Under the pieces are notes generated by a model. The model was not told the DNA's origin, did not search any database, and saw only the letters and a program-made list of their open reading frames with translations. From a virus (taxonomy: Duplodnaviria; Caudoviricetes): a DNA stretch of 64,000 bases. Positions 9,431-60,518 of the stretch are shown here, piece after piece. Location: positions 6,052 through 70,051 of IMG/VR virus record IMGVR_UViG_3300033075_001214. One strand, given 5' to 3'. Each line of letters starts with the position of its first letter. The first letter of the stretch is position 1. The translations under genes and the position numbers were made by a program.

Positions 9431-9458
9431 GTTATCCAACGTTTTAATGTTGGATAAC
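9431..9458. repeat. Terminal palindrome of array 1 (distal half of the split att site)
   Basis: GTTATCCAAC-8 nt-GTTGGATAAC, perfect 10-bp inverted repeat. Confidence 0.85.
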
Positions 9459-9904
9459 CGTTCTGCCTCTATGTGCAGTGCGTTTATTACAGATAAGTTG
9501 AACAATGAAATACTACAAGAAAATAAAAAATTTTAAACCAGCGCGTGGGCGATTCACCTAAATTAAAATGGAAAACATACAGCTATCACAAAACCTCACA
9601 GTTAATTACTTGACGACTATACAGCAAAGCCCCATGAAGGTGAGGTTCCATTGTACCTTTTTTGGAGAAGAGTTTATTGCGGATGTTTCAAAAAAGAATG
9701 TTGACAAAGATTGGGCAAGCATTGAGGGAGAAGGGCCAAGCGAATTATTTGACTCATTCACTTCACAAATGGAAGATGAGTATTGGGATAAGGTGAAGGA
9801 GTTGTTTAAAGAGTTCGAGAGCCAGGAGGTTTAAAATTTTTTATTTTCTCCGCACACATGAAGCTACAACGCACAGAACTAAGCATTGCACATAGAGGCT
9901 TGTT
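9456..9904. repeat. attC-like site 1 with a gene-containing loop
   Basis: AAC-cgttct-GCCTCTATGTGCAGTGC (9465-9481) pairs with GCATTGCACATAGAGGC (9883-9899)-tt-GTT; 16/17 bp. Confidence 0.8.
9568..9834 (+). CDS. Hypothetical protein inside the attC-1 loop
   Basis: ORF track, 88 aa. Confidence 0.75.
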   Translation: MENIQLSQNLTVNYLTTIQQSPMKVRFHCTFFGEEFIADVSKKNVDKDWASIEGEGPSELFDSFTSQMEDEYWDKVKELFKEFESQEV

Positions 9905-10113
9905 GTATGACGTTTGCCTCATGTGCGGCTGGGACAGGATTATGTAGGGCTGGACATTGCCATTGCATAATGGTTCTGGTGTATAGTGTCGTTGTGGCCC
10001 TACCCAAACTTAATGAGCCACACGGTTTTGCAACCTTTGGAAGTGCGTGGAAGTTGTGCGGGTTGCTTAACGGTGTGAGCGGTGAAACTGAAACTAAATA
10101 AATTGAAACTTAT

Positions 10114-10482
10114 ATGAATGAAACTCAAATTTTTCACGGAATACAACACATCGGTCTATTCATGGGATGGACTCATGATGAATTAAGGGTTTACTTAACT
10201 GTAAAATATCCTCAATCTAAAAATCTCGGCAAGTTGGCTTTCAATGAAAGTTGGGATTTACTTATGCCTGTGATTGATAAAATTGAAACCATTAAAACAA
10301 TTAACGATTCAGAGAAATTTAGATTTAACATTACTGGCGATGGTATAAGTATAACCCGTTTTGATGATGGGAGTGGTGTAATCTCACAAAGAGTTAATGA
10401 TTCAACTAATAGACTTCAATACGCCTTTGAGGTTGTTGTGGAATTTATAGAATGGTATAACCAACCTAATGTATACGCATAA
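10114..10482 (+). CDS. Hypothetical protein (SWD.LMPV..KIE...EFI.WYN family)
   Basis: ORF track; shared motif with the next gene. Confidence 0.8.
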   Translation: MNETQIFHGIQHIGLFMGWTHDELRVYLTVKYPQSKNLGKLAFNESWDLLMPVIDKIETIKTINDSEKFRFNITGDGISITRFDDGSGVISQRVNDSTNRLQYAFEVVVEFIEWYNQPNVYA

Positions 10483-10492
10483 CTAAAACTAA

Positions 10493-10840
10493 ATGATTAT
10501 GGAAGAGTCTAAAATCGAATTAAACAAACTTATTGCAACCTATCGGGGTAGTATTATCGTACAAAGATACCATGCTGAATGGCATCATTTAATGCCTGTA
10601 GTTCAAAAGATTTATAAGTTTTTAGAGGATAACTTTCTCGATGATTTTTGGACTACTAAAGGTATCTATTGGCAACATTCAAAGTTTAACAGTATGCCAA
10701 TTTACACCCCAATAGACATAGTTTACAAAAGGGTGATTGAATTTATAAAATGGCACAATAATACAATCCTTGTTAATAATAGTAAAAATGAATTGTACCA
10801 CGATTACCAAGCTGAAATAAAAAAAATAAATGACCTATGA
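10493..10840 (+). CDS. Hypothetical protein, paralog of 10114..10482
   Basis: EWHHLMPVVQKI...EFIKWHN. Confidence 0.8.
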   Translation: MIMEESKIELNKLIATYRGSIIVQRYHAEWHHLMPVVQKIYKFLEDNFLDDFWTTKGIYWQHSKFNSMPIYTPIDIVYKRVIEFIKWHNNTILVNNSKNELYHDYQAEIKKINDL

Positions 10841-11132
10841 TATGACACAAGAGCAAGTTAATGAAATGGAAAGTTGGTGCGATTGGGCATGCGCCAATAA
10901 AGAAAGAACTTCCAAAGTTTGGAAGGCTTTAAGACTTGGATACATACAGGGTATCTATCGAAGTAATCTTAAAAATGAAGAGGTTTTAAAACTACTGAAA
11001 TCAATGACCTTATCAATGGCAGCTCATCCTGACTGTTTTAAAAGACCGGACGGTGCGGCAAGTGAGTTTTACGACCTTGTCGAAATGGCTGAAAAAGTTC
11101 TCGAAGGTACTTTATATACTCGGCACGGATAA
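10830..11132 (+). CDS. Hypothetical protein
   Basis: ORF track; overlaps the previous gene. Confidence 0.7.
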   Translation: MTYDMTQEQVNEMESWCDWACANKERTSKVWKALRLGYIQGIYRSNLKNEEVLKLLKSMTLSMAAHPDCFKRPDGAASEFYDLVEMAEKVLEGTLYTRHG

Positions 11133-11211
11133 ACAAACTTAGGATGTGTGAGGGGTTTGCGCGGTGTGTTTATTGGTGCCGCCTGAGGGGCCACAATGCA
11201 CTATACACGGT

Positions 11212-11301
11212 GTTAGCGGTAGTGACAAAACGAAGCGTTGGCCAAAAGTAGGAAGAAGCTCTGCGCCTGCTTTTTTCAAGGGTTTTGGCATTACCGCTAA
11301 C
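11212..11301. repeat. Matched GTT...AAC cassette ends (non-coding interval)
   Basis: GTTAGCGGTAgTGaCAAAAC / GTTTTGgCAtTACCGCTAAC, 18/20 inverted repeat. Confidence 0.85.
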
Positions 11302-11328
11302 AAGTAATTTGTAATTTTCTATTGTAAC
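11299..11328. other. attI-like site 1
   Basis: AACAAGTAATTTGTAATTTTCTATTGTAAC, 22 bp upstream of the recombinase start; 26/30 identical to the reverse complement of 55820-55849. Confidence 0.7.
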
Positions 11329-11350: not shown

Positions 11351-12181
11351 ATGAATATTTCTGCTCACATCGACTTCTTCAAACAGGAAATGAAACGTAG
11401 GGGATTAGGTAATTCAACCATTCAAAGCTATCCGTCCTACGTCAAAACATTCTTTGAACAATCAAAGGCAGATCACCCAAAGAATATTCATGAGCAAGAA
11501 ATCAGAGAGTTCTTAGGCAGATTCACGGAGCCCAATACACAACGGGCCTATCATTCGGCAATCAAAAAATTCTATGCTATCTGTTTGAATCAGGAACATA
11601 AGTTTCGATACATACCTTATTGCAAAGCCAGCAAAAAACTTCCTATTGTTCTATCCGTTGAAGAAATTCAACGGATGTTTGATGTTTGTGAAAATCTTAA
11701 ACATCGTGCTATCCTAGCATTGCTTTATTCATGCTCGTTACGCTCGTCAGAATTAATCAATCTAAAATGGACTGATATCGACCGATCAAGAATGATTATT
11801 AACATCCGACAGGCCAAAGGAAAGAAGGATAGGCAAGTTGGATTAAATCAAAAACTCATTGAAGTACTGGAGAACTACTATCGAAAGTACACTCCAAAGG
11901 AATATGTTTTCAATGGTCAGTTTTCTTTACAATATTCCAAAGAAAGCGTCCTGCAAGTTATCAAGCAGTTAGCCGATAAAGCACACATTGACAATAAACG
12001 TGTCTACACTCACCTCATGCGTCATTGCTCCGCTACACACATGCTGGAAAGCGGAGTTGACTTGAATCTCATTCAACGGATACTTGGTCACTCGTCTGTT
12101 AAAACGACCGCGATATACGCTCACATTTCGCATAACTTAATTTCACGTATTAACTCCCCGTTGACCGCCATCAACTTATAG
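11351..12181 (+). CDS. int: Tyrosine recombinase, IntI-related, short form
   Basis: R131, K156, H221-x-x-R224, H247, Y256; N-terminal SAM-like domain; KKLPIVLS.EE, KGKKDR and C-terminal SPL motifs. Confidence 0.92.
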   Translation: MNISAHIDFFKQEMKRRGLGNSTIQSYPSYVKTFFEQSKADHPKNIHEQEIREFLGRFTEPNTQRAYHSAIKKFYAICLNQEHKFRYIPYCKASKKLPIVLSVEEIQRMFDVCENLKHRAILALLYSCSLRSSELINLKWTDIDRSRMIINIRQAKGKKDRQVGLNQKLIEVLENYYRKYTPKEYVFNGQFSLQYSKESVLQVIKQLADKAHIDNKRVYTHLMRHCSATHMLESGVDLNLIQRILGHSSVKTTAIYAHISHNLISRINSPLTAINL

Positions 12182-52900: not shown

Positions 52901-53293
52901 GAGGTGAGCACAGATGACTTTCGATACAAATTATATCAAGACTTCAAGAAAGACTACGATGCCGATTGGCTTCCCGGTGCCCCATCTAAAACAATCACTG
53001 TAAAGGGTGAAAATATTAAACTTGACGGCACTCAGTACGAGTTACTTTCTACCTATGTAGGCCAGGAACGCAAGGATATGACACAGGCCTATATCAATTC
53101 CAAATCCTATGAGCGAGCCAGTGATGCCGATAAGAAAGAAGAACTAAAGGCTATTTATCGGGATGCTTCAGAACTAGGCCGTGAACGGTTCATGATTGAC
53201 ATGGGGTACACCGTAAGCCGGATGATTCCTTTGGAGTTAGAACAAGCAAATCGGAGGATGCAACGGAAGCAAAATAAGTTCAAACCTAAGTAA
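49895..53293 (+). CDS. Large internal virion/ejection protein
   Basis: 1132 aa, helical, with a hydrophobic central region. Confidence 0.6.
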   Translation: MPLIDCIKASNLATEPEIEALTSKVSAMVQKGVPEIEAEYTVKNEFINDVYEKLNKDLNAVKKSAGVKTSRIDKVEPPNFKEPPPKKEQGEEPPPKPRNYAIADRILNSDANEAIKRGIKEKGASYVPKGLDITLGEAKNLIELYGDKADGIVRDLTNGLTWDTRTALTAKLYEKYVEEGRNEEAVNIAMWQAEQSLQAGRASNAAKIWKMITESGEENIVLSIERERQAQRDQLIEPVAKELQQTREQIEAEIRKQVEARVQKEVGDRLKKAKLITKEKRKEIADFFDGLKIDTKNKGMMSASVIPGITLLPHVWNASVDIMKQAILTGADVANAIQAGIDYIKANQKEAIDEEKFKEFMAPKLEAIVPKEPVKREGIDDEKIKTPKTLKGRKKKEFIDEVIQAYNEGKLTDKKFEEIYAGKMGFKEFTEADRKRIRELAKTISEAEKFENVLREDFTDENINKYKDLIKQAKQANNLLQEFAQAPASIEDTLISIMQGNLLSPLSQVANIYYNVNYQPLRFMSMLGGSFVDYSLSKLAKIGLASKAMEVRTIDPIALQKGYFKGGWNGAIEGAQQVVTGVDQDPRSLREIQTNFSPVRAIQRWSDKNRSAAQKANDYVEGTLGIPAEAMFRLLNLGDKPFRRAAEMAKAMEMASLRGLKGNDLLKFLVVPDPESAALIKQAGDEATFQQSEGFGKKIQQYITDFLNTIAKIPYVGKPAKVLLKSQIPFVKTPWNVAAETLQYAAPPITMAIGIRQIATGNKRGGSIMIGKAMVGAVIQIVAYQLFIKGLLTGDDDKEKKKRDFQFDNVPPPNSINTTAIARGLAGQGWETKDGDIWSPYTKMGVTGILFDHYSNTYKERVANNEPLLDVDAYLSDMITSGPKVASSSLDQTFLQGTSKLLEAVKDGGNKKTTDWIITTTEAVGSIVYPNTLATISKASDEYLRDVQDDSFWKKLGNVYQNKMFMGDALPAKVSIWGDKVTGNPEGRNKYVYYLFDPTKFKEVSTDDFRYKLYQDFKKDYDADWLPGAPSKTITVKGENIKLDGTQYELLSTYVGQERKDMTQAYINSKSYERASDADKKEELKAIYRDASELGRERFMIDMGYTVSRMIPLELEQANRRMQRKQNKFKPK

Positions 53294-53333
53294 GCAAATT
53301 TATCCTTAAATTTACCTAACAAAACCCATCGCC

Positions 53334-53834
53334 ATGATCAACCAGAATCTAGTCAATAACGAAGTTAAGGTCGAGCGAATCACCACCGGTACAACCCATC
53401 CGTACCTGGGAGCGATCCCTACCAAGGGCACCATTCCGCTTGCTGAAACACTTACCGGCACAATCACTACCGATAATGCAGGAGCTTCCGCAGGACTGAT
53501 CGTTCTGGGTTCAGGAACCATATTTTTGACCGAAGTCTATCCGGGTGATTTTATCTACGATGATGACGCAGCCATCCGCAAGGTAGTAGCTGTATTTTCC
53601 GATACCATGCTCGAATTAGAGGAGAAATTCCCTGCCAGTGTATCCAGCATAGCCCTCAAGGTGCCCAAGCGCTCTTATTACAAGGCTATCACGGCTCGTT
53701 CTTCCGGAACCGTAGACGCAGAATTACAGGAGTCTTCTTTTGTTATTGGCTCCAGTACCGTAACAGGAGGATCTCCTTTGGCGTATGATGCCAGTACAGC
53801 GAATTCAGAAATAGAATTCACCTGTTCTAAATAA
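53334..53834 (+). CDS. Putative structural protein
   Basis: 166 aa beta-rich; LTGTITT...SGTIFLTEV.PGDFI motif. Confidence 0.55.
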   Translation: MINQNLVNNEVKVERITTGTTHPYLGAIPTKGTIPLAETLTGTITTDNAGASAGLIVLGSGTIFLTEVYPGDFIYDDDAAIRKVVAVFSDTMLELEEKFPASVSSIALKVPKRSYYKAITARSSGTVDAELQESSFVIGSSTVTGGSPLAYDASTANSEIEFTCSK

Positions 53835-54394
53835 TGGTCAATAAACACCATACCAAGGTTTTTATCCTAAAGCCTGATGGCACAGAAGTACCCCTTGCTC
53901 AGTGGCAGGAGGAAAATGGCTACGAGGTAGGAAGTGCCCGCATTGCCAAACATTTCTGGTTTACGGAATCTAAGTTTTTAGAGAACATTCAAGACTACGG
54001 AAAGTTAGTAGTTTGTGAATTACTCATGAAAGTAGCCGATAAGTACCGCGACATGAAATCCGCTTCCGTTCGGGTTAATTCATTCAACCGAAGCCGGGAA
54101 AAACAAGAACAATTGATCGCTGATGGATTTAAGGCCGCAGCAGTATCTCCCCATGAATTTTACCTGGCTATGGATGCCGATACAGATACGGAACAGGAAA
54201 CCCGGCTCAATGCAGCCATGATCCGGGAGGCCGCCAAGCAGTTGGGGATTAAGATAAGAATTGGATTTGAACAATATCTCGCTGATAAAAATACGTTTGT
54301 GCATTTTGACTGCGCTCCAGAATATTTTGCGCCAGGTAAACCGTGGCATCATCTCAATCATCCGCGTCAATGGGAAACTGAAAACCAATGGTAA
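53834..54394 (+). CDS. Endolysin, peptidase M15-like
   Basis: NSFNRS...SPHEFYLAMD...FVHFD zinc-binding pattern; adjacent to membrane genes. Confidence 0.8.
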   Translation: MVNKHHTKVFILKPDGTEVPLAQWQEENGYEVGSARIAKHFWFTESKFLENIQDYGKLVVCELLMKVADKYRDMKSASVRVNSFNRSREKQEQLIADGFKAAAVSPHEFYLAMDADTDTEQETRLNAAMIREAAKQLGIKIRIGFEQYLADKNTFVHFDCAPEYFAPGKPWHHLNHPRQWETENQW

Positions 54395-54759
54395 TACTAC
54401 AATCTTTAACAGGTTCATTAACTCCAGACGGGGCTCTTTCCGGAGACTACGCATTAGGATTGGCTTTTGGCGTCATTGGATTTTTATTGGTAGCTGTAGC
54501 CACCTTAGTAGGAAATTATTTCATTTCAACACTCAAGGGCATCAAGGAGGAGATTAAGAATGTGCATACCCGAATTGATACCCGGGAGACGGAGCATGAC
54601 CAGTTAGCCAAGCATCATGAAGAAACTAAGATGCAGGTGCTTCTTATCAAAAGTAAGTTAGATACAGATGGTGAAAAACTAGCTATGAATATTGCGATGA
54701 AACTCAGGGCTATGTCTACCCGTCCTCCTGGATTTTACGATAACGAAACTGAAGAATGA
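54388..54759 (+). CDS. Holin-like membrane protein
   Basis: N-terminal TM followed by a coiled coil; lysis context. Confidence 0.5.
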   Translation: MVILQSLTGSLTPDGALSGDYALGLAFGVIGFLLVAVATLVGNYFISTLKGIKEEIKNVHTRIDTRETEHDQLAKHHEETKMQVLLIKSKLDTDGEKLAMNIAMKLRAMSTRPPGFYDNETEE

Positions 54760-55211
54760 ATCTATCCAACGAAAACGGTGATTTGATCTTAAAGATTATT
54801 GGCGGGATTATTGCGTTCTTCTCGCTCCGATGGATCATCAAATTATTTGCCGGTGTTGATAAGAAACTCAACTTGAAAGAATTCAAAGACTTTGTGGCCT
54901 TTGGATTGTTTATCTGGGCATTCGTTTATATTCTTCTCACAGAAGCTAACCGGCCAGCCTCTTCCGCGCATGTATTTTCAGAGATTTGGATTTTCTTTAT
55001 CATTACCGCGTTGTTAAGTGTACTAGCTAAGAATGAAATCTTTGATAGTTTTAGCCGGGCCTTAGAGTTGTTGATCAAGTTACGAACCAAAGTTTCTTAT
55101 GAAAGTGATACTATCAAAAGCACTACCAGTCATTCTACTACTGTTAGTCGGGCTGAGTCTGGGATACCTGATAGCTCCCAAGCAGGACAAACAGATAAAG
55201 AGGGAGTTTGA
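54756..55211 (+). CDS. Holin-like protein (3 TM segments)
   Basis: Three hydrophobic segments and a polar tail. Confidence 0.55.
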   Translation: MNLSNENGDLILKIIGGIIAFFSLRWIIKLFAGVDKKLNLKEFKDFVAFGLFIWAFVYILLTEANRPASSAHVFSEIWIFFIITALLSVLAKNEIFDSFSRALELLIKLRTKVSYESDTIKSTTSHSTTVSRAESGIPDSSQAGQTDKEGV

Positions 55212-55446
55212 GCGACAAAAGAAGGAGATACAATCTCAGATTCAGCAAATTCAAGCCTTGCAAAAACAGGTAGCCAACAAAGATTCTGTGTGGACCAAAG
55301 TTGTCCAACTTCATAAAGACTCCCTGATTCTCGAACGCAAAACCACAACCCGGCTGCATCATGAAAATAAACGTCTTAAAAATCGTCCTGTTCCTAATTG
55401 GAGCCATGCTGATCTGGACTCCATTATCGGCACAATCATCCGATAG
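55099..55446 (+). CDS. Spanin-like protein (N-terminal TM, coiled coil)
   Basis: VILLLLVGLSLGYLI followed by a Q/K-rich coiled coil; overlaps neighbours. Confidence 0.5.
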   Translation: MKVILSKALPVILLLLVGLSLGYLIAPKQDKQIKREFERQKKEIQSQIQQIQALQKQVANKDSVWTKVVQLHKDSLILERKTTTRLHHENKRLKNRPVPNWSHADLDSIIGTIIR

Positions 55447-55756
55447 CCTGTATTGTTCTCCAATCTGGAAGATTCGAAAACTTACATCCATTGCTCAACG
55501 GGTGCCCGTGCTCGATAGCCTGGTTGATGCGCAGGTAGCTGAAATCAATCGCTTAAATAGTATTGTAGCCGGAGATGACATCATTCTCAAGGCAAGGGTA
55601 AAGCAAATAGGCCTTCTCGTAGATGAAAAGACTAAACTAAACGAACTCAATTCCATCCAGGTAAAACTCACCGATCAGGAGAAACGCGACAAGCGCCAAT
55701 GGAAAGGAATTGCTATTGTGCTGGGGGTGCTATGTTTGGTGCAGGTGTTTTATTAG
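55361..55756 (+). CDS. Spanin-like protein (signal peptide, coiled coil, C-terminal TM)
   Basis: Hydrophobic N- and C-termini; last gene of the lysis cassette. Confidence 0.45.
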   Translation: MKINVLKIVLFLIGAMLIWTPLSAQSSDSLYCSPIWKIRKLTSIAQRVPVLDSLVDAQVAEINRLNSIVAGDDIILKARVKQIGLLVDEKTKLNELNSIQVKLTDQEKRDKRQWKGIAIVLGVLCLVQVFY

Positions 55757-55819
55757 AATTTCTGCTTGTGCCAATTGACGTGAACAGGAAAAATTTTTGT
55801 ACGCTTTGATTGTCTGTAA

Positions 55820-55849
55820 GTTACAATGATAAATTACAAATAACTTGTT
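55820..55849. other. attI-like site 2
   Basis: GTTACAATGATAAATTACAAATAACTTGTT; 26/30 identical to the reverse complement of 11299-11328. Confidence 0.7.
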
Positions 55850-55894
55850 ATGCACAATTGGCGATTGCATACGAGGCAAAACTTCCTCGCGGAG

Positions 55895-56251
55895 CTACCC
55901 GCCATAAAGTTCATCTCCTTTTTTCCAAGTGTCGTACTTGCCATCCCGCACGTTTTGCCCAGCCGCACCATCGCCAACAGTCGGCTGCCGGACAGGTTTG
56001 TTTGTGGGTAGCCAACCTTCTTCACATGGTAGTCCACATTGATTACAACACCACACGGTTGTCTCCCCAACCCTGTCTTTGCATTGGCAGCCTTGCATAA
56101 CACCATGTTTATGCGAGTTTTGCTCAGTGTGCAGTTTCCAAAGTGAATCCAACGCGCCATGTATAACATAATCTCCTACTTGATGTGAGAATGTTATTTC
56201 TTTACGAAGTATCTCCGCGCACCGTTCTTTAAATTCTTTTTCTGTTATCAT
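55895..56251 (-). CDS. Cassette gene that starts inside an attC loop; Cys-rich C-terminal half
   Basis: 118 aa; codon 51 (Val) is the GTT/AAC core at 56101-56099; CQC...CCNQC..C. Confidence 0.7.
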   Translation of the reverse strand: MITEKEFKERCAEILRKEITFSHQVGDYVIHGALDSLWKLHTEQNSHKHGVMQGCQCKDRVGETTVWCCNQCGLPCEEGWLPTNKPVRQPTVGDGAAGQNVRDGKYDTWKKGDELYGG

Positions 56252-56299
56252 AGTGTGTAGTTTTTAAGTCGCAAAACCCTCATAAACATTTGATGCGTT
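56099..56299. repeat. attC-like site B (201 bp)
   Basis: AAC-acc-ATGTTTATGCGAGTTTTGC (56105-23) pairs with GCAAAACCCTCATAAACAT (56271-89)-ttgatgc-GTT; 17/19. Confidence 0.85.
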
Positions 56300-56309
56300 A
56301 TGTGCAAGG

Positions 56310-56531
56310 CTACAATCCGTTTTCAAATTGAAGTAAGTTTTTAAGACCGTATCTGTTCAACCAATCACTTGTAAAAAAGTCAATGTTATTTAAACCACAA
56401 AACTTAAATTCATCAACCGATTCTTTCGGAACTTTTTGATTTGTGTATGCTTCAAATTCAGTTACACAATCATTTAATTCCATTTTGTTATATTTTCTTA
56501 TTAGTTCTATTGCTAAAAAAAGTTCTTTCAT
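56310..56531 (-). CDS. Cassette gene, hypothetical, 73 aa
   Basis: Lies between matched ends GTTATGTGC (56297) and GCACATAAC (56571-79). Confidence 0.75.
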   Translation of the reverse strand: MKELFLAIELIRKYNKMELNDCVTEFEAYTNQKVPKESVDEFKFCGLNNIDFFTSDWLNRYGLKNLLQFENGL

Positions 56532-56576
56532 TTCGTTTTCAAATTAAATTTAGTGCTGATAATCCGCCCAGCACAT

Positions 56577-56700
56577 AACAGCGGTTTGTAGCAAAAAGGG
56601 CTGACGTGCTACATTCATCATTTGTGGTTCTAATCGGCAGTAGTGCAAGGTTGAAACAATATGATTCTAAATCCCTTTCAGCTACAAGCCGCAAAACGTT
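56577..56700. repeat. attC-like site A (124 bp, classical size)
   Basis: AAC-a-GCGGTTTGTAGC-aaaaaGGG ... CCCtttca-GCTACAAGCCGC-aaaac-GTT. Confidence 0.88.
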
Positions 56701-56726
56701 AGACAACATTGAAGCAGTTGTCTAAC
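56698..56726. repeat. Terminal palindrome of array 2
   Basis: GTTAGACAAC-9 nt-GTTGTCTAAC; overlaps the stop codon of 56722..57432. Confidence 0.85.
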
Positions 56727-57432
56727 AACGCTTCATCCAGATATTATCCTCCTTCATAGCATAGTACGTCACGCCTTCCACTTCGTACTCCCAATTCGAA
56801 TCGTGCTGGAAATACACATGATCTCCAGGACTCAGGTCTGGCCGTGAGCGAATATGGCGCACCGTTCCTTCAAGCATCTTATGAATTGGCTCCACAGATA
56901 GAATAAACCCACTGTCTACCGTTGCGTCTTCGTGTGGCTTTACTAACACCCAACCGGCCTGCATCCGTGTCCCTACGCAAATCAATGCGTCTGGCAGGGC
57001 TTTAAATACGGAATAGGACTCATGCTCTTCATGCAGGTTCTCAGGCTCCGTCACATTGGGATGAAAGTAAACGGTCTCGCCTACTTCCGCATCCACCAGT
57101 GCTCCGATATCCGCCAGCGATAAAAAGTCAATTTGCTCTTTGGTAGAAGGATAATATTGAATCGTAGCCGACTTTCGGCCCATTAAGGCCATAGTCTGCA
57201 GGGTATCATGCCCTACATATATCCGGTGGTTAGGCACTCCTGGATCGATCGGTTGATAATTCGTGTCACTGTAAGCCGTTGGTTTAGCTATAACTAAGCC
57301 TTTCCGGACCTTGCGCATATACCGGTCGCGCTCCTGATCAATGTACCAGGCATTATTCCGGCCTATCAGGTTGCCTTCCTTGAGGTCGTCAAATACGTTG
57401 TCAACACGGATTAGATAGTGGTCGTAGAGCAT
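56722..57432 (-). CDS. Protein with two tandem GroES-like domains
   Basis: GWVLVKP...SGFIL...EGTVRHI...PGDHVYF...YEVEGVTYYAMKEDNI; an N-terminal copy with VGETVYFH. Confidence 0.7.
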   Translation of the reverse strand: MLYDHYLIRVDNVFDDLKEGNLIGRNNAWYIDQERDRYMRKVRKGLVIAKPTAYSDTNYQPIDPGVPNHRIYVGHDTLQTMALMGRKSATIQYYPSTKEQIDFLSLADIGALVDAEVGETVYFHPNVTEPENLHEEHESYSVFKALPDALICVGTRMQAGWVLVKPHEDATVDSGFILSVEPIHKMLEGTVRHIRSRPDLSPGDHVYFQHDSNWEYEVEGVTYYAMKEDNIWMKRC

Positions 57433-57436
57433 ACCC

Positions 57437-57444
57437 CAAACCTA
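57437..57444 (-). promoter_or_regulatory. -7 promoter element, possibly giving a leaderless mRNA
   Basis: TAGGTTTG on the minus strand, 4 nt before the ATG at 57432. Confidence 0.45.
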
Positions 57445-57561
57445 AGAAATAAAAACGAATATATTAGTGTTTTTTTATTACGAATATTTGTTTTATCATT
57501 GTAGAGACAAAAAGAAGCCCACCGGCTTTTAACCAGCGGGCCCTAACCCCAACAGTTATGA

Positions 57562-57599
57562 CAAACAAAACTATCCCGGCTGTCCCCACAACCGGGATA
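57562..57599 (-). terminator. Intrinsic terminator for 57625..57888
   Basis: TATCCCGG/CCGGGATA stem followed by GTTTTGTTTG on the minus strand. Confidence 0.6.
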
Positions 57600-57624
57600 T
57601 TATCTTCAAGCCCGAAACGCTTTA

Positions 57625-57888
57625 TTAAGCGTTCAGTAGCGTATGAACCTGAGCAACCGTCTGCATCACGTAGAACTCCTGATCTAAACCAGTTTGAGCC
57701 TCTACAACGCGTCCGTACAACATGCCAAGTCCGGTAAGATTGATAGCGCCAGCATCCAACGTGTTAACCGGAGTTACCTCCTTAATGTCGGTTGATTTAA
57801 AGGCTCTCGCAAAAACACCGTTCAGACCATACGATCCGTCAGCTTTTTGTTCAACGCGGTACACATGCAGGTTAATTGAATTTGCCAT
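57625..57888 (-). CDS. Hypothetical protein (monocistronic, possibly a virion protein)
   Basis: 87 aa; TAAATTTG upstream on the minus strand; terminator downstream. Confidence 0.75.
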   Translation of the reverse strand: MANSINLHVYRVEQKADGSYGLNGVFARAFKSTDIKEVTPVNTLDAGAINLTGLGMLYGRVVEAQTGLDQEFYVMQTVAQVHTLLNA

Positions 57889-57929
57889 GATTTAAAGTTT
57901 TTAAGTGAATCAAATTTAAGGAAAAATTT

Positions 57930-58868
57930 GTGAGCAATTACTACACCTTCAAGTTTTCTCAATTCCCCGGTGATCTCATTAACTTTCTCCCTGGTATCAA
58001 GCACGTATGCCAACGGGACGGAAAGCAGGCAATACTGATTTTAGGGCTTGATATTAACTGGCAATCCGTAGGAGCTCTAACCCGTAAATCCCCCGCCACG
58101 ATCAATAAAGAAACCTTTGAATCTTTAAAGTCTCTTTTGCTCAGTCAATACTACATCGCTCAAGTGATTTCATGGGAGGACTTTGCGCCAGACACCTACA
58201 GACTATGGTGTGATTTCTTCAAGATTCTCCGTTCTCCATCGGAAATGATTCAATTTCATAATCAGCATTTCTCTCACCTTGTAGACCTCGATAAAATCTA
58301 CCTTACCCCTACCAACATTCCTTACGGAAACATTCACCGTTGGCCATGGTATTGCTATCCTGATATGGCATGTGATCTGAGTGAACCTTGGATTGAAGTT
58401 GCCCCGGATGACTCACTTGAGGATGCCATTGTAATCAACAGAACTTTGAGATCACGAAATGAATCAATTAATTATAAGTTTCTAAAGCCGTTTGATAAAA
58501 AAATAATCTTTGTGGGATTTGATGATGAGTTTGATGAATTTATTATATCAAATAATCTGATTGATGATGAGTTAATTTATGATGACGATGAAGATTTTCA
58601 GGTTTATAACGATGCTCAGATAGCTACAAATATAAAACACGTTAAGCCTACAAACTTACTAGAACTTGCTGTTATTATCCGATCCTGCAAATTCTTCATG
58701 GGCAATCAGTCGTTATGCTTTGCGCTTGCTGAGGCCATGAAAGTGCCGCGCATTTTAGAAACTTGTTCATATCTGCCAAACGTCATACCTTCGGGCGAGA
58801 AGGCTTATGACTTTTACTTTCAATCCAGTCTGGAATATTACTTTAATCAATTGAATGATGAATCGTAG
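57930..58868 (+). CDS. GT9-like (heptosyltransferase-type) glycosyltransferase
   Basis: PGDLINFLPGIKHV; LLELAVIIRSCKFFMGNQSLCFALAEAMKVP. Confidence 0.8.
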   Translation: MSNYYTFKFSQFPGDLINFLPGIKHVCQRDGKQAILILGLDINWQSVGALTRKSPATINKETFESLKSLLLSQYYIAQVISWEDFAPDTYRLWCDFFKILRSPSEMIQFHNQHFSHLVDLDKIYLTPTNIPYGNIHRWPWYCYPDMACDLSEPWIEVAPDDSLEDAIVINRTLRSRNESINYKFLKPFDKKIIFVGFDDEFDEFIISNNLIDDELIYDDDEDFQVYNDAQIATNIKHVKPTNLLELAVIIRSCKFFMGNQSLCFALAEAMKVPRILETCSYLPNVIPSGEKAYDFYFQSSLEYYFNQLNDES

Positions 58869-59115
58869 ATCGTTTCTTTTATCTATTCCGTTTATTGCGG
58901 GAGCATCAAAGATTCTTGCAAAAGAGACCGTTAATCCATTAGACAAATATCCAGATATGGGGTGGATTTCTTCACGCAACGGAATTCTTACTACATCTGA
59001 CCCAAAGATTATCTACTGGTTAGATAATCACCCCCATAATCTTACTAAGAAGTTTGGTACTATTGAATGGAAAAATAAAAAGTTTGGTAAAGTAATTTTT
59101 AAACGCACCCAATGA
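58855..59115 (+). CDS. Small protein with a twin-arginine-like signal
   Basis: MMNRRSFLLSIPFIAGASKILA. Confidence 0.55.
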   Translation: MMNRRSFLLSIPFIAGASKILAKETVNPLDKYPDMGWISSRNGILTTSDPKIIYWLDNHPHNLTKKFGTIEWKNKKFGKVIFKRTQ

Positions 59116-60518
59116 TCTCCCTCCCCAACGTCACCCTCGTCTGCATCGATACCGTTAATTACGGTCCGGCCATCAACGCGATCAATAAGTCGCTGGAAAA
59201 AATCACTCCCGCTAAGACAATATTCTTTACAGACATCGCTTGTGTGGCCAATGATGACTTTGATGTAATTAATATCAAACATCTGTATAGCAAGAAGGAT
59301 TACTCTAAGTTCATGATGAAGGAACTTGGGAAGTATGATTTCGACACATCACATATCCTGGTAATTCAATGGGATGGCTACGTGATTGATGAAAACGCAT
59401 GGGATGATGAGTTTCTAAAGTATGATTATCTGGGCGGCCTTTGGTTATATGATGATGGTCACGCAAACGGCAATGGTGGGTTCTCGTTACGGTCAGTAAA
59501 ACTTCATGAAGCGCTTACTGAAGATGATTTTATTTTACCCGCAGCATTTGAAGATGATGCTATCTGCCGCACGTACCGGAATTATCTGGAACAAAAGTGG
59601 GCTATGAAATTTGCCCCCGATGAACTTTGTGAGAAATTTTCCTTTGAACTTCGCAGGCCGCGTCAAGAAACTTTCGGCTTTCACTCCTTCTTCCATCAAC
59701 CGTTCAAGGAGCATATTGTAATCAAAAGGACGGGAGCTCTCGGAGATGTAATACAAACTGAGCCCATCATGGAATATTTTCACAAGCAAGGGCATCCGGT
59801 CGTATTGCAGACAACGCCATCTTTTTTTAACGTGTTTGCCATGCATCACTTTCCGGTGATCAGTTACGAAAGATTTGACAAGTCGGTGCGGCATCGGGTG
59901 ATTAACTTGGACATGGCTTACGAGATTAAGCCCCGTCAATTACACCTTAAATCTTACTTTGAAGCCGCTGGAATCACTGATTATAAACTCAGAAACCCGA
60001 AGTTAACTTATAAGTTAAGTAAGGAAACGCGGCTATTCAAACAGAAATATGTAGTCATTCATATCGACAAGCGCGAGACATCTCACCGGAATCAGTTTGG
60101 CGTAGACTGGAGTTCGGTAAGAAAATACCTTGAAGGCCGCGGATACCTGGTTGTTCAGGTTGGTAAAAACGAGCATGATCTGGCGGGCATCGAGTTTAAT
60201 TGTGTGACTGAGGCTATGCTCATGTGGACATTGGCTGGCGCTGATTTAATGTTAGCTGTCGATTCAGGACCTTCCCATGTGGCCGTAGCTCTTGGAATTC
60301 CTGCGGTTATTCTTTTCGGATCCGTGTCCCCATGGTATATTCACGCTGATATGGATAAAATCACCCCTATCTTTACTGAGTGCCCGATCAAGAAACAATT
60401 TTGCTGGCATGAGAAAGTAGGCACTACCGGCAGTGTTTGTGAAGTCGACTCCGAACTCCCTCCGTGCTGTGAGTATGATACCAGTAAAATAATTGATGCT
60501 ATAAATAAGATGTTATGA
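59112..60518 (+). CDS. DUF5672 plus GT9-like glycosyltransferase fusion
   Basis: LPNVTLVCID...QWDGYV...GNGGFSLRS; GALGDVIQT...LAVDSGPSHVAVALGIPAVILFG. Confidence 0.85.
   Translation: MISLPNVTLVCIDTVNYGPAINAINKSLEKITPAKTIFFTDIACVANDDFDVINIKHLYSKKDYSKFMMKELGKYDFDTSHILVIQWDGYVIDENAWDDEFLKYDYLGGLWLYDDGHANGNGGFSLRSVKLHEALTEDDFILPAAFEDDAICRTYRNYLEQKWAMKFAPDELCEKFSFELRRPRQETFGFHSFFHQPFKEHIVIKRTGALGDVIQTEPIMEYFHKQGHPVVLQTTPSFFNVFAMHHFPVISYERFDKSVRHRVINLDMAYEIKPRQLHLKSYFEAAGITDYKLRNPKLTYKLSKETRLFKQKYVVIHIDKRETSHRNQFGVDWSSVRKYLEGRGYLVVQVGKNEHDLAGIEFNCVTEAMLMWTLAGADLMLAVDSGPSHVAVALGIPAVILFGSVSPWYIHADMDKITPIFTECPIKKQFCWHEKVGTTGSVCEVDSELPPCCEYDTSKIIDAINKML

Follow-up and report, generated by a model that had tools for sequence, protein, structure and literature searches.

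A small phage gene that starts inside a hairpin on a probable integron-like cassette of Bacteroidota phages

We analyzed a 64-kb stretch of DNA, hereafter referred to as the window, which represents most of a 70-kb virus record estimated to be 91% complete. Positions 55895–56251 of its minus strand encode ORF118, a protein of 118 amino acids in which the list of open reading frames, homologues, and selection delineate three modules. The N module (codons 1–51; 56099–56251) is a helical, two-helix domain of a widespread family. The Cys-rich module (codons 52–91; 55979–56098) displays a CxC...CCxxC pattern. The remainder begins with the GTT codon of Val92 (55978–55976) and forms a low-complexity tail rich in Gly, Ala, and Asp (55895–55978), which is enclosed by its own 8-bp inverted repeat.

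The N module is under purifying selection in its annotated frame only, with pN/pS values of 0.08–0.25 in that frame and of at least 0.7 in the other frames. Differences among relatives in the Cys module are mostly synonymous changes at third codon positions. Given the invariance of C55, C68, C69, and C72, together with that of G62, T64, N70, and G73, this module probably adopts a small zinc-binding fold. Selection on the N module, synonymous change in the Cys module, and an older two-domain homologue (P0034, described below) show that ORF118 is a real gene, and we consider it rather likely that this small phage gene travels on a cassette of the integron type. An AlphaFold model of ORF118 built from 26 sequences has a mean pLDDT of 58.8 and is confident only for the two helices of the N module (residues 4–18 and 27–46); the tail falls below 50 and scores as disordered. 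Profiles from Pfam and PHROGs assigned neither ORF118 nor the neighboring ORF73 to a family, and tblastn of ORF118 against 50,697 phage records returned no match. A search of the ESM Atlas gave no match above 0.85, a zinc-ribbon ribosomal protein family being a weak lead only. A compensated frameshift is found among relatives at 55979–56000, where one base is lost and one gained 12 nt apart. This change converts KPVRQP to YTVGSR, altering six residues, yet keeps a 7-nt inverted-repeat arm, which suggests that DNA as well as protein is constrained at the end of the Cys module.

The 5′ half of ORF118 is embedded in an imperfect hairpin of 219 nt with a 147-nt loop, designated hairpin B (56309–56091, minus strand). 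Its 5′ arm (56309–56271) comprises a core box (56309–56297) that ends in AAC, a 7-nt spacer (56296–56290), and a 19-nt stem (56289–56271). The 3′ arm (56123–56091), which corresponds to codons 43–54, comprises the other strand of the stem (56123–56105), a 3-nt spacer (56104–56102), and a core box that begins with GTT at 56101. As the original prediction noted, the ATG of ORF118 at 56251 lies within the loop, codons 43–50 in the 3′ arm read EQNSHKHG, and the GTT core at the foot of this arm (56099–56101) is the codon for Val51. The N module is thus encoded by the loop and the 3′ arm. The prediction also placed the Cys-rich half outside the hairpin; this half does lie beyond hairpin B, but smaller inverted repeats flank it, together with another in-frame GTT, that of Val92.

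On the minus strand, hairpin B folds with an energy of −32.7 kcal/mol (z = −3.2), and none of 200 shuffled sequences folded as well; the corresponding values for the plus strand are −24.3 kcal/mol and z = −1.5. In addition, the cognate 5′ arm outscored all 200 shuffled arms. Hairpin B is therefore not a chance palindrome. Each of its core boxes deviates by one base from the consensus of the 7-nt R″ (RYYYAAC) or R′ (GTTRRRY) box of attC, with AAC and GTT present. The site had been called an attC, yet it is not a canonical one: it is 219 nt long, lacks single-base bulges, and occurs in a genome whose recombinase is devoid of the IntI insert. A scan of positions 53000–60000 against Rfam identified no matching family, the two sub-threshold hits being chance matches. 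A third hairpin (55858–55883/56116–56141) was considered and rejected; its pieces are complementary but not colinear.

Hairpin B is one of two hairpins in a short array on the minus strand. Ahead of it lies the ORF73 cassette (56297–56579), which contains ORF73 (56310–56531) and a leader (56528–56583) and has 9-nt reverse-complement ends. This cassette is preceded by hairpin A (56566–56712), which has spacers of 5 and 1 nt, a short loop, and no ORF inside. The array is closed by an empty unit of 29 nt (56698–56726) with 10-nt complementary ends, which overlaps the stop codon of a GroES-like gene. At its opposite end is an attI-like terminal motif of 30 bp (55820–55849, minus strand) that starts with the last AAC core of the array. 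A second copy of this motif (11299–11328, plus strand) marks the end of another array and lies 22 bp upstream of a recombinase gene. Two copies in the window compare with 0 expected by chance; both arrays end in the motif, and the genes of both read toward it. The array adjoining the recombinase gene (9458–11298) contains arms 444 and 1236 nt apart that enclose one and three genes, respectively, as well as short, GC-rich units without genes. No integrase is encoded within 44 kb of the ORF118 locus.

The recombinase gene (11351–12181, plus strand) encodes a Xer-like protein of 276 amino acids, the sole tyrosine recombinase in the genome. Its score stays under the cut-off for every family, with 201 bits against the best-matching model, XerA-type (cut-off 220), and 167 bits against the integron integrase model (cut-off 265). 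The match to the latter consists of two stretches that skip positions 178–238, and the protein thus lacks the insert specific to IntI. In cultured phages, the closest relatives of this protein are the integrases of phages that infect Polaribacter and Cellulophaga. From its adjacency to the first array and the repeated 30-bp motif, we infer that this protein is the candidate enzyme acting on the hairpin sites.

Comparison with relatives reveals that hairpin B is one instance of an integron-like grammar of cassettes found in Bacteroidota phages. In this grammar, the AAC core is followed by a long spacer and a covarying stem, and a short spacer precedes the GTT core. A scan for the whole grammar identified two loci in the window (9458–11212 and 56101/56579) and none in five shuffled windows. 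Contigs of relatives contain rows of small genes pointing in one direction, and nearly all of their GTT junctions are matched by an upstream arm specific to the junction. The spans between arms range from 63 to 1236 nt; short ones are empty, those of ~190 nt hold an N module, and long ones hold one to three whole genes. We compared 21 different hairpins, each of which has its own stem. Cognate arms pair at 8.4 of 9 positions, as opposed to 5.1 of 9 for non-cognate arms, and on the gene-sense strand the stems contain 374 Watson–Crick pairs, 28 G·T pairs, and 4 A·C pairs. The 5′ spacer exceeds the 3′ spacer in all 19 hairpins that were measured, by 3–4 nt in 18 of them. GTT is invariant in relatives, and the 5′ core is often AAT instead of AAC. 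These alignments indicate that structure rather than sequence is conserved. Units between hairpins begin after GTT and end before AAC or AAT, and their own ends are complementary over 7–10 nt (9 nt in the ORF73 unit, 8 nt in the ORF118 unit). The same rule holds in L012, L014–L016, the Polaribacter phage Leef_1, and an uncultured 635-kb phage. In integrons, complementary unit ends are a trace of the circular cassette (PMC2727003).

The original prediction offered two models for hairpin B. In the first, crossover occurs at 56297 and the gene travels intact; in the second, crossover occurs at the other core (GTT 56101) and C-terminal parts are swapped in frame. The prediction held that sequence could not tell which core is cleaved. 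We compared the locus with related contigs, among them contigs from four metagenomes of different studies, a comparison that separates the two models and reveals that both events have occurred in nature. The evidence for modules, cassettes, and breakpoints is drawn from comparative sequence, from which we infer the mechanism of recombination.

The ORF73 cassette is identical up to AAC 56297 in five contexts, which diverge from the next base onward. It is followed by hairpin B and ORF118 in the window and in L048, which we count as one context. At the same position, L049 has an integrase gene, L050 and L051 have other hairpins, with another gene and with a methyltransferase gene, respectively, and contig L052 ends. 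In none of the contexts compared does it take hairpin B along. Contigs in all four metagenomes break at 55846–55851 and at 56296/7, each with a different sequence in front of 56296. A contig from run X2, a wastewater sample, joins 55846 to 56297 through six shared bases and thereby skips the 450-nt ORF118 cassette; this empty-site joint was seen in one contig of one run, with 30 nt on its shorter side. Other skip joints (hairpin B loop, ORF73, hairpin A loop) have short sides and an unknown intervening sequence and were excluded from the evidence, and stretches of the locus without contig cover were not on their own counted as absence. An equivalent unit of 429–438 nt that consists of a hairpin and a gene is 97–99% identical in L014, L015, and L016, which place it in three different surroundings. 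The contexts of ORF73, the breaks in the metagenomes, and the L014–L016 units indicate that a hairpin travels with the gene behind it. We conclude from these alignments that the AAC core at 56297 is the main cassette boundary, as in the first of the two models, and that ORF118 moves intact with the hairpin in front of it. The cassette as moved spans 55847–56296 on the minus strand, with a 6-nt ambiguity at its ends, and includes the spacer, the hairpin with the N module, the Cys module, the tail, and a closing AAC box. The argument that classical spacer asymmetry favors this crossover fails, however. The extra bases of canonical attC sites reside on the R″-L″ arm (PMC2727003), and a crossover at 56297 makes that arm the shorter one here.

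The two GTT codons of ORF118 are additional breakpoints. A word-indexed protein search identified 33 relatives of ORF118, among which more than 10 N-terminal pieces of ~50 residues cannot be aligned with one another, and all are fused to a near-identical Cys piece at ...V|MQGC.... Conversely, the N piece of ORF118 also precedes quite different C-terminal parts through V|SGK or V|MQA. Val51 is the sole nearly invariant column in the alignment of the 33 homologues. A search without a word index among 1.8 billion representatives returned 63 matches, which fall on separate parts of the protein: ~35 cover residues 1–50 only, some of them at the C-terminus of larger proteins, ~20 cover the Cys part only (residues 52–87), and three cover the tail only (residues 88–118; P0033, P0052, and P0057). 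A handful cover both halves. One of these, P0034, joins the two domains without the junction motif, and the two-domain protein is therefore older than the junction. Exact-pattern scans of viral contigs yielded 0 loci for the Cys junction, 6 for the general junction, and 12 for the closing motif, nearly all of which are chance matches within unrelated genes; L028 and L031 alone are related. A pattern scan of metagenomes yielded one short contig, L035.

Re-pairing can also be followed at the DNA level. The N module of L005 is 95% identical to that of ORF118, and homology stops one base past GTT 56101, where a different body begins; its left end lies 5 nt inside the spacer and hence not exactly at the core. 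Contigs from runs X2 and X4 join an alternative body of the L005 type at 56098. L039 and L042 have in common only a body of 290 nt (97% identical) that extends from GTT to the closing box, and their N modules are unrelated. L044 and L014–L016 have in common only the Cys module (137 nt, 97% identical), which ends at the second GTT, and the tail of ORF118 alone is 94% identical in L006–L011. Wherever a long ORF crosses a GTT core, the GTT is in frame as a codon (five core types in three phage lineages). Partners at GTT joints share 7–11 nt of junction sequence, which is shorter than an assembler word, and assembly artefacts can therefore be dismissed for the pairwise junctions. Where short-read contigs combine three modules, the assembler could have formed chimeras across the conserved Cys module, which exceeds 31 nt. 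Taken together, these comparisons indicate that the GTT codons of Val51 and Val92 are additional, rarer breakpoints at which modules are re-paired in frame. The second of the two models thus identified a real, secondary exchange point at GTT 56101, but one that is used less often and less cleanly than 56297. By the terms of the original prediction, this model required that the halves of the protein do not always occur together, and they are indeed found apart (L005, matches to single modules, L039/L042, and the X2 and X4 contigs).

Could exchange at GTT be the main pathway, with routine cutting at the in-frame core splicing a new protein each time? The core that is invariant on the sense strand is GTT, the 5′ core being AAC or AAT, many pairings of N and C parts exist, and the longer arm occupies the R″-L″ position if the sense strand corresponds to the top strand (PMC2727003). 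However, the units that are 97–100% identical across contexts end at AAC cores and keep the hairpin and the gene behind it together, and the ORF73 cassette consistently leaves hairpin B behind. We therefore consider a predominant role for the GTT core very improbable.

A different explanation, which we regard as the main rival, dispenses with site-specific recombination altogether. The hairpins would be stems that govern the processing or stability of transcripts, and the mosaics would result from ordinary phage recombination at short linkers similar to the PeSLs of T4-type phages. PeSLs are short structured motifs that flank small, non-essential genes at sites of insertion, deletion, and replacement (Arbiol et al. 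2010, PMC2839356; PMC4122927); they drive modular shuffling and make mini-circles (PMC2839356). Several features of the arrays are compatible with this explanation. The excess of G·T over A·C pairs (28 versus 4) lies on the transcribed sense strand and would also fit RNA structure, all arrays share the direction of transcription, and one related contig encodes RecT. Moreover, breakpoints are found not only at cores but also in a spacer, at stem edges, and at the second GTT. On the other hand, the overlap at junctions amounts to merely 6–11 nt, and the stems are specific to each unit and covary, which renders them unusable as common linkers. Nor does the explanation predict complementary unit ends, a repeated 30-bp motif, or adjacency to an integrase. 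PeSLs are defined by a conserved sigma-70 promoter and a terminator stem-loop, recombine by homology, are intergenic and untranslated, and have neither covarying stems nor core boxes. Promoter-like sites show no enrichment (5 observed versus 4.5 expected), and no T-run follows the stems. On balance, stems acting at the level of transcripts seem unlikely to us to account for the arrays.

The same organization is present in cultured Polaribacter phages. Gene 37 of Leef_1 (L036, 4590–4930) has its start codon in a hairpin loop and reads GTT as codon 44. Behind it lies a unit whose ends are complementary over 9 nt, followed directly by an integrase gene. The phages Freya_1 (L045 and L047) and Freya_10 (L046 and L037) have identical flanks and differ by a 4.9-kb block of ~12 small genes, inserted exactly after an AAC core and directly upstream of the integrase gene. 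The flanks of the insertion include ~20 nt of similar sequence, and the block could also have been gained by short-homology recombination. The paper that describes the Freya phages (PMC8776804) contains no mention of hairpins or of a variable region. The genomes of the other eight Freya isolates are intermediate in size and would provide single-cassette steps. In L049 (positions 1–1143), which comes from another metagenome, the exact ORF73 cassette lies directly upstream of a different 276-amino acid integrase gene. The cassette is therefore present in both integrase-linked and integrase-less arrays.

The arrays resemble integrons in many respects. Their sites are imperfect hairpins recognized, as in integrons, by shape rather than by sequence (PMC2727003), and they combine AAC and GTT cores with a stem that an unpaired spacer divides into two parts, a variable loop, and a G after AAC. 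Each cassette begins with a sequence complementary to its far core box, arrays terminate in a distinct site beside a tyrosine recombinase gene, and cassettes are gained and lost exactly at the core, with AAC here on the gene-sense strand. Despite these similarities, several differences are apparent. The phage recombinase lacks the IntI-specific insert. Canonical attC sites have two or three extrahelical bases on the R″-L″ arm (PMC2727003), whereas hairpin B has none and instead has spacers of 7 and 3 nt. The hairpin stands in front of its gene and folds better on the gene-sense strand. Integron genes are oriented away from attI, with Pc driving their expression, whereas genes here read toward the terminal motif. 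Finally, a loop here may contain a start codon, a protein domain, or an entire gene, and the second core also serves as a breakpoint.

These similarities and differences bear on the possibility that the arrays are ordinary bacterial attC cassettes, captured by phages as CALINs and moved by IntI of the host. CALINs have been reported in phages, including Polaribacter phage P12002L, whose attC-like sites form such an element; of two sites assayed in E. coli, IntI1 recombined one (Qi et al. 2023, PMC9892861). The phage-borne arrays in that report lack an adjacent integrase, as does the ORF118 locus. We find that the hairpins of P12002L follow the same grammar, with ORFs in phase, and the AAC/GTT cores and complementary ends match those of integron cassettes (PMC2727003). 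However, single-base extrahelical bulges are replaced by a spacer asymmetry of 3–4 nt, the 5′ core is often AAT in relatives, genes point toward the terminal motif, and loops reach 1.2 kb. Furthermore, arrays in several phages adjoin a Xer-like recombinase without the IntI insert. We judge capture from bacteria to be improbable, and less likely than stems acting in transcripts. The abstract and section 3.4 of PMC9892861 treat the sites as bacterial integron components carried by phages and do not mention a phage recombinase, genes that start in loops, or in-frame exchanges. We found no publication on genes that start inside such hairpins or on a phage recombinase tied to them.

The anatomy, covariation, coding status, and breakpoints of these arrays are observations, onto which we place a mechanism in conditional terms. 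The hairpin site precedes its gene, and its freely variable loop would have come to hold the start codon and a 50-residue N domain. Recognition of attC sites does not involve their variable terminal structure (PMC2727003), and by analogy the loop may hold coding sequence because recognition does not depend on it. Translation would cross the 3′ arm and its GTT core before reaching the remaining codons. The Xer-like recombinase may cut the folded single strand, mainly the gene-sense strand, at AAC, and occasional use of the opposite strand or of the other core may produce in-frame swaps at GTT. In attC mutants that lack extrahelical bases, strand choice is partly lost and crossover shifts to the R″ box (PMC2727003). 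It is tempting to speculate that Bacteroidota phages have an integron-like system of their own, in which a short Xer-like recombinase reads bulge-less hairpins with an imperfect choice of strand, such that both cores recombine. Because genes that cross a core all do so in codon phase 0, the minor pathway would resemble exon shuffling, with heads, bodies, and tails of small phage proteins re-paired at specific sites. We offer this proposal as a tentative one, possible rather than probable. Loops of 150–1200 nt would fold poorly as single-stranded DNA, which counts against recombination of folded hairpins.

The in-frame breakpoints recall the Rci shufflon of PilV (PMC5430464), in which sites for a tyrosine recombinase lie in frame within a gene and the ends of a protein are exchanged. 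Shufflons, however, flip segments of a single genome between conserved repeats of double-stranded DNA. The units described here, in contrast, stand in direct order, vary from genome to genome, and undergo mainly the movement of whole genes. No alternative inverted segment on the opposite strand reads into the junction at the ORF118 locus.

Bacterial integrons are known for collecting whole genes. The arrays described here exhibit the same logic in phages and differ in three ways: the recombinase belongs to another lineage, the sites stand in front of genes, and the sites are translated. If the recombinase makes the exchanges at GTT, the arrays would constitute a natural, site-specific device for the shuffling of protein domains, which would help to explain the many small orphan proteins of phages. 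Such loci would mislead gene callers as well as integron finders. The presence of the same build in the cultured phages Leef_1 and Freya makes the question directly testable.

Additional observations concern the surroundings of the arrays. The array at the ORF118 locus starts at the stop codon of a gene on the minus strand (56722–57432) that encodes 236 amino acids; the last 75 residues match GroES (Cpn10), and the N-terminal 160 match nothing. No relatives of this GroES-like protein were found in viral contigs. Short-read contigs (L004, L005, and L048–L052) end at most a few hundred bases from arrays or inside the leader, and such arrays are thus likely to be under-represented or fragmented in assemblies. 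The 56-nt leader ahead of ORF73 (56528–56583) is widely repeated and includes a small hairpin. It has the appearance of a leader common to several cassettes and perhaps serves as a promoter or a translation signal. A 96% identical copy heads a different gene in the same grammar in the uncultured 635-kb phage LR745206, and the depth of the leader in metagenome contigs is ~10 times that of its flanks.
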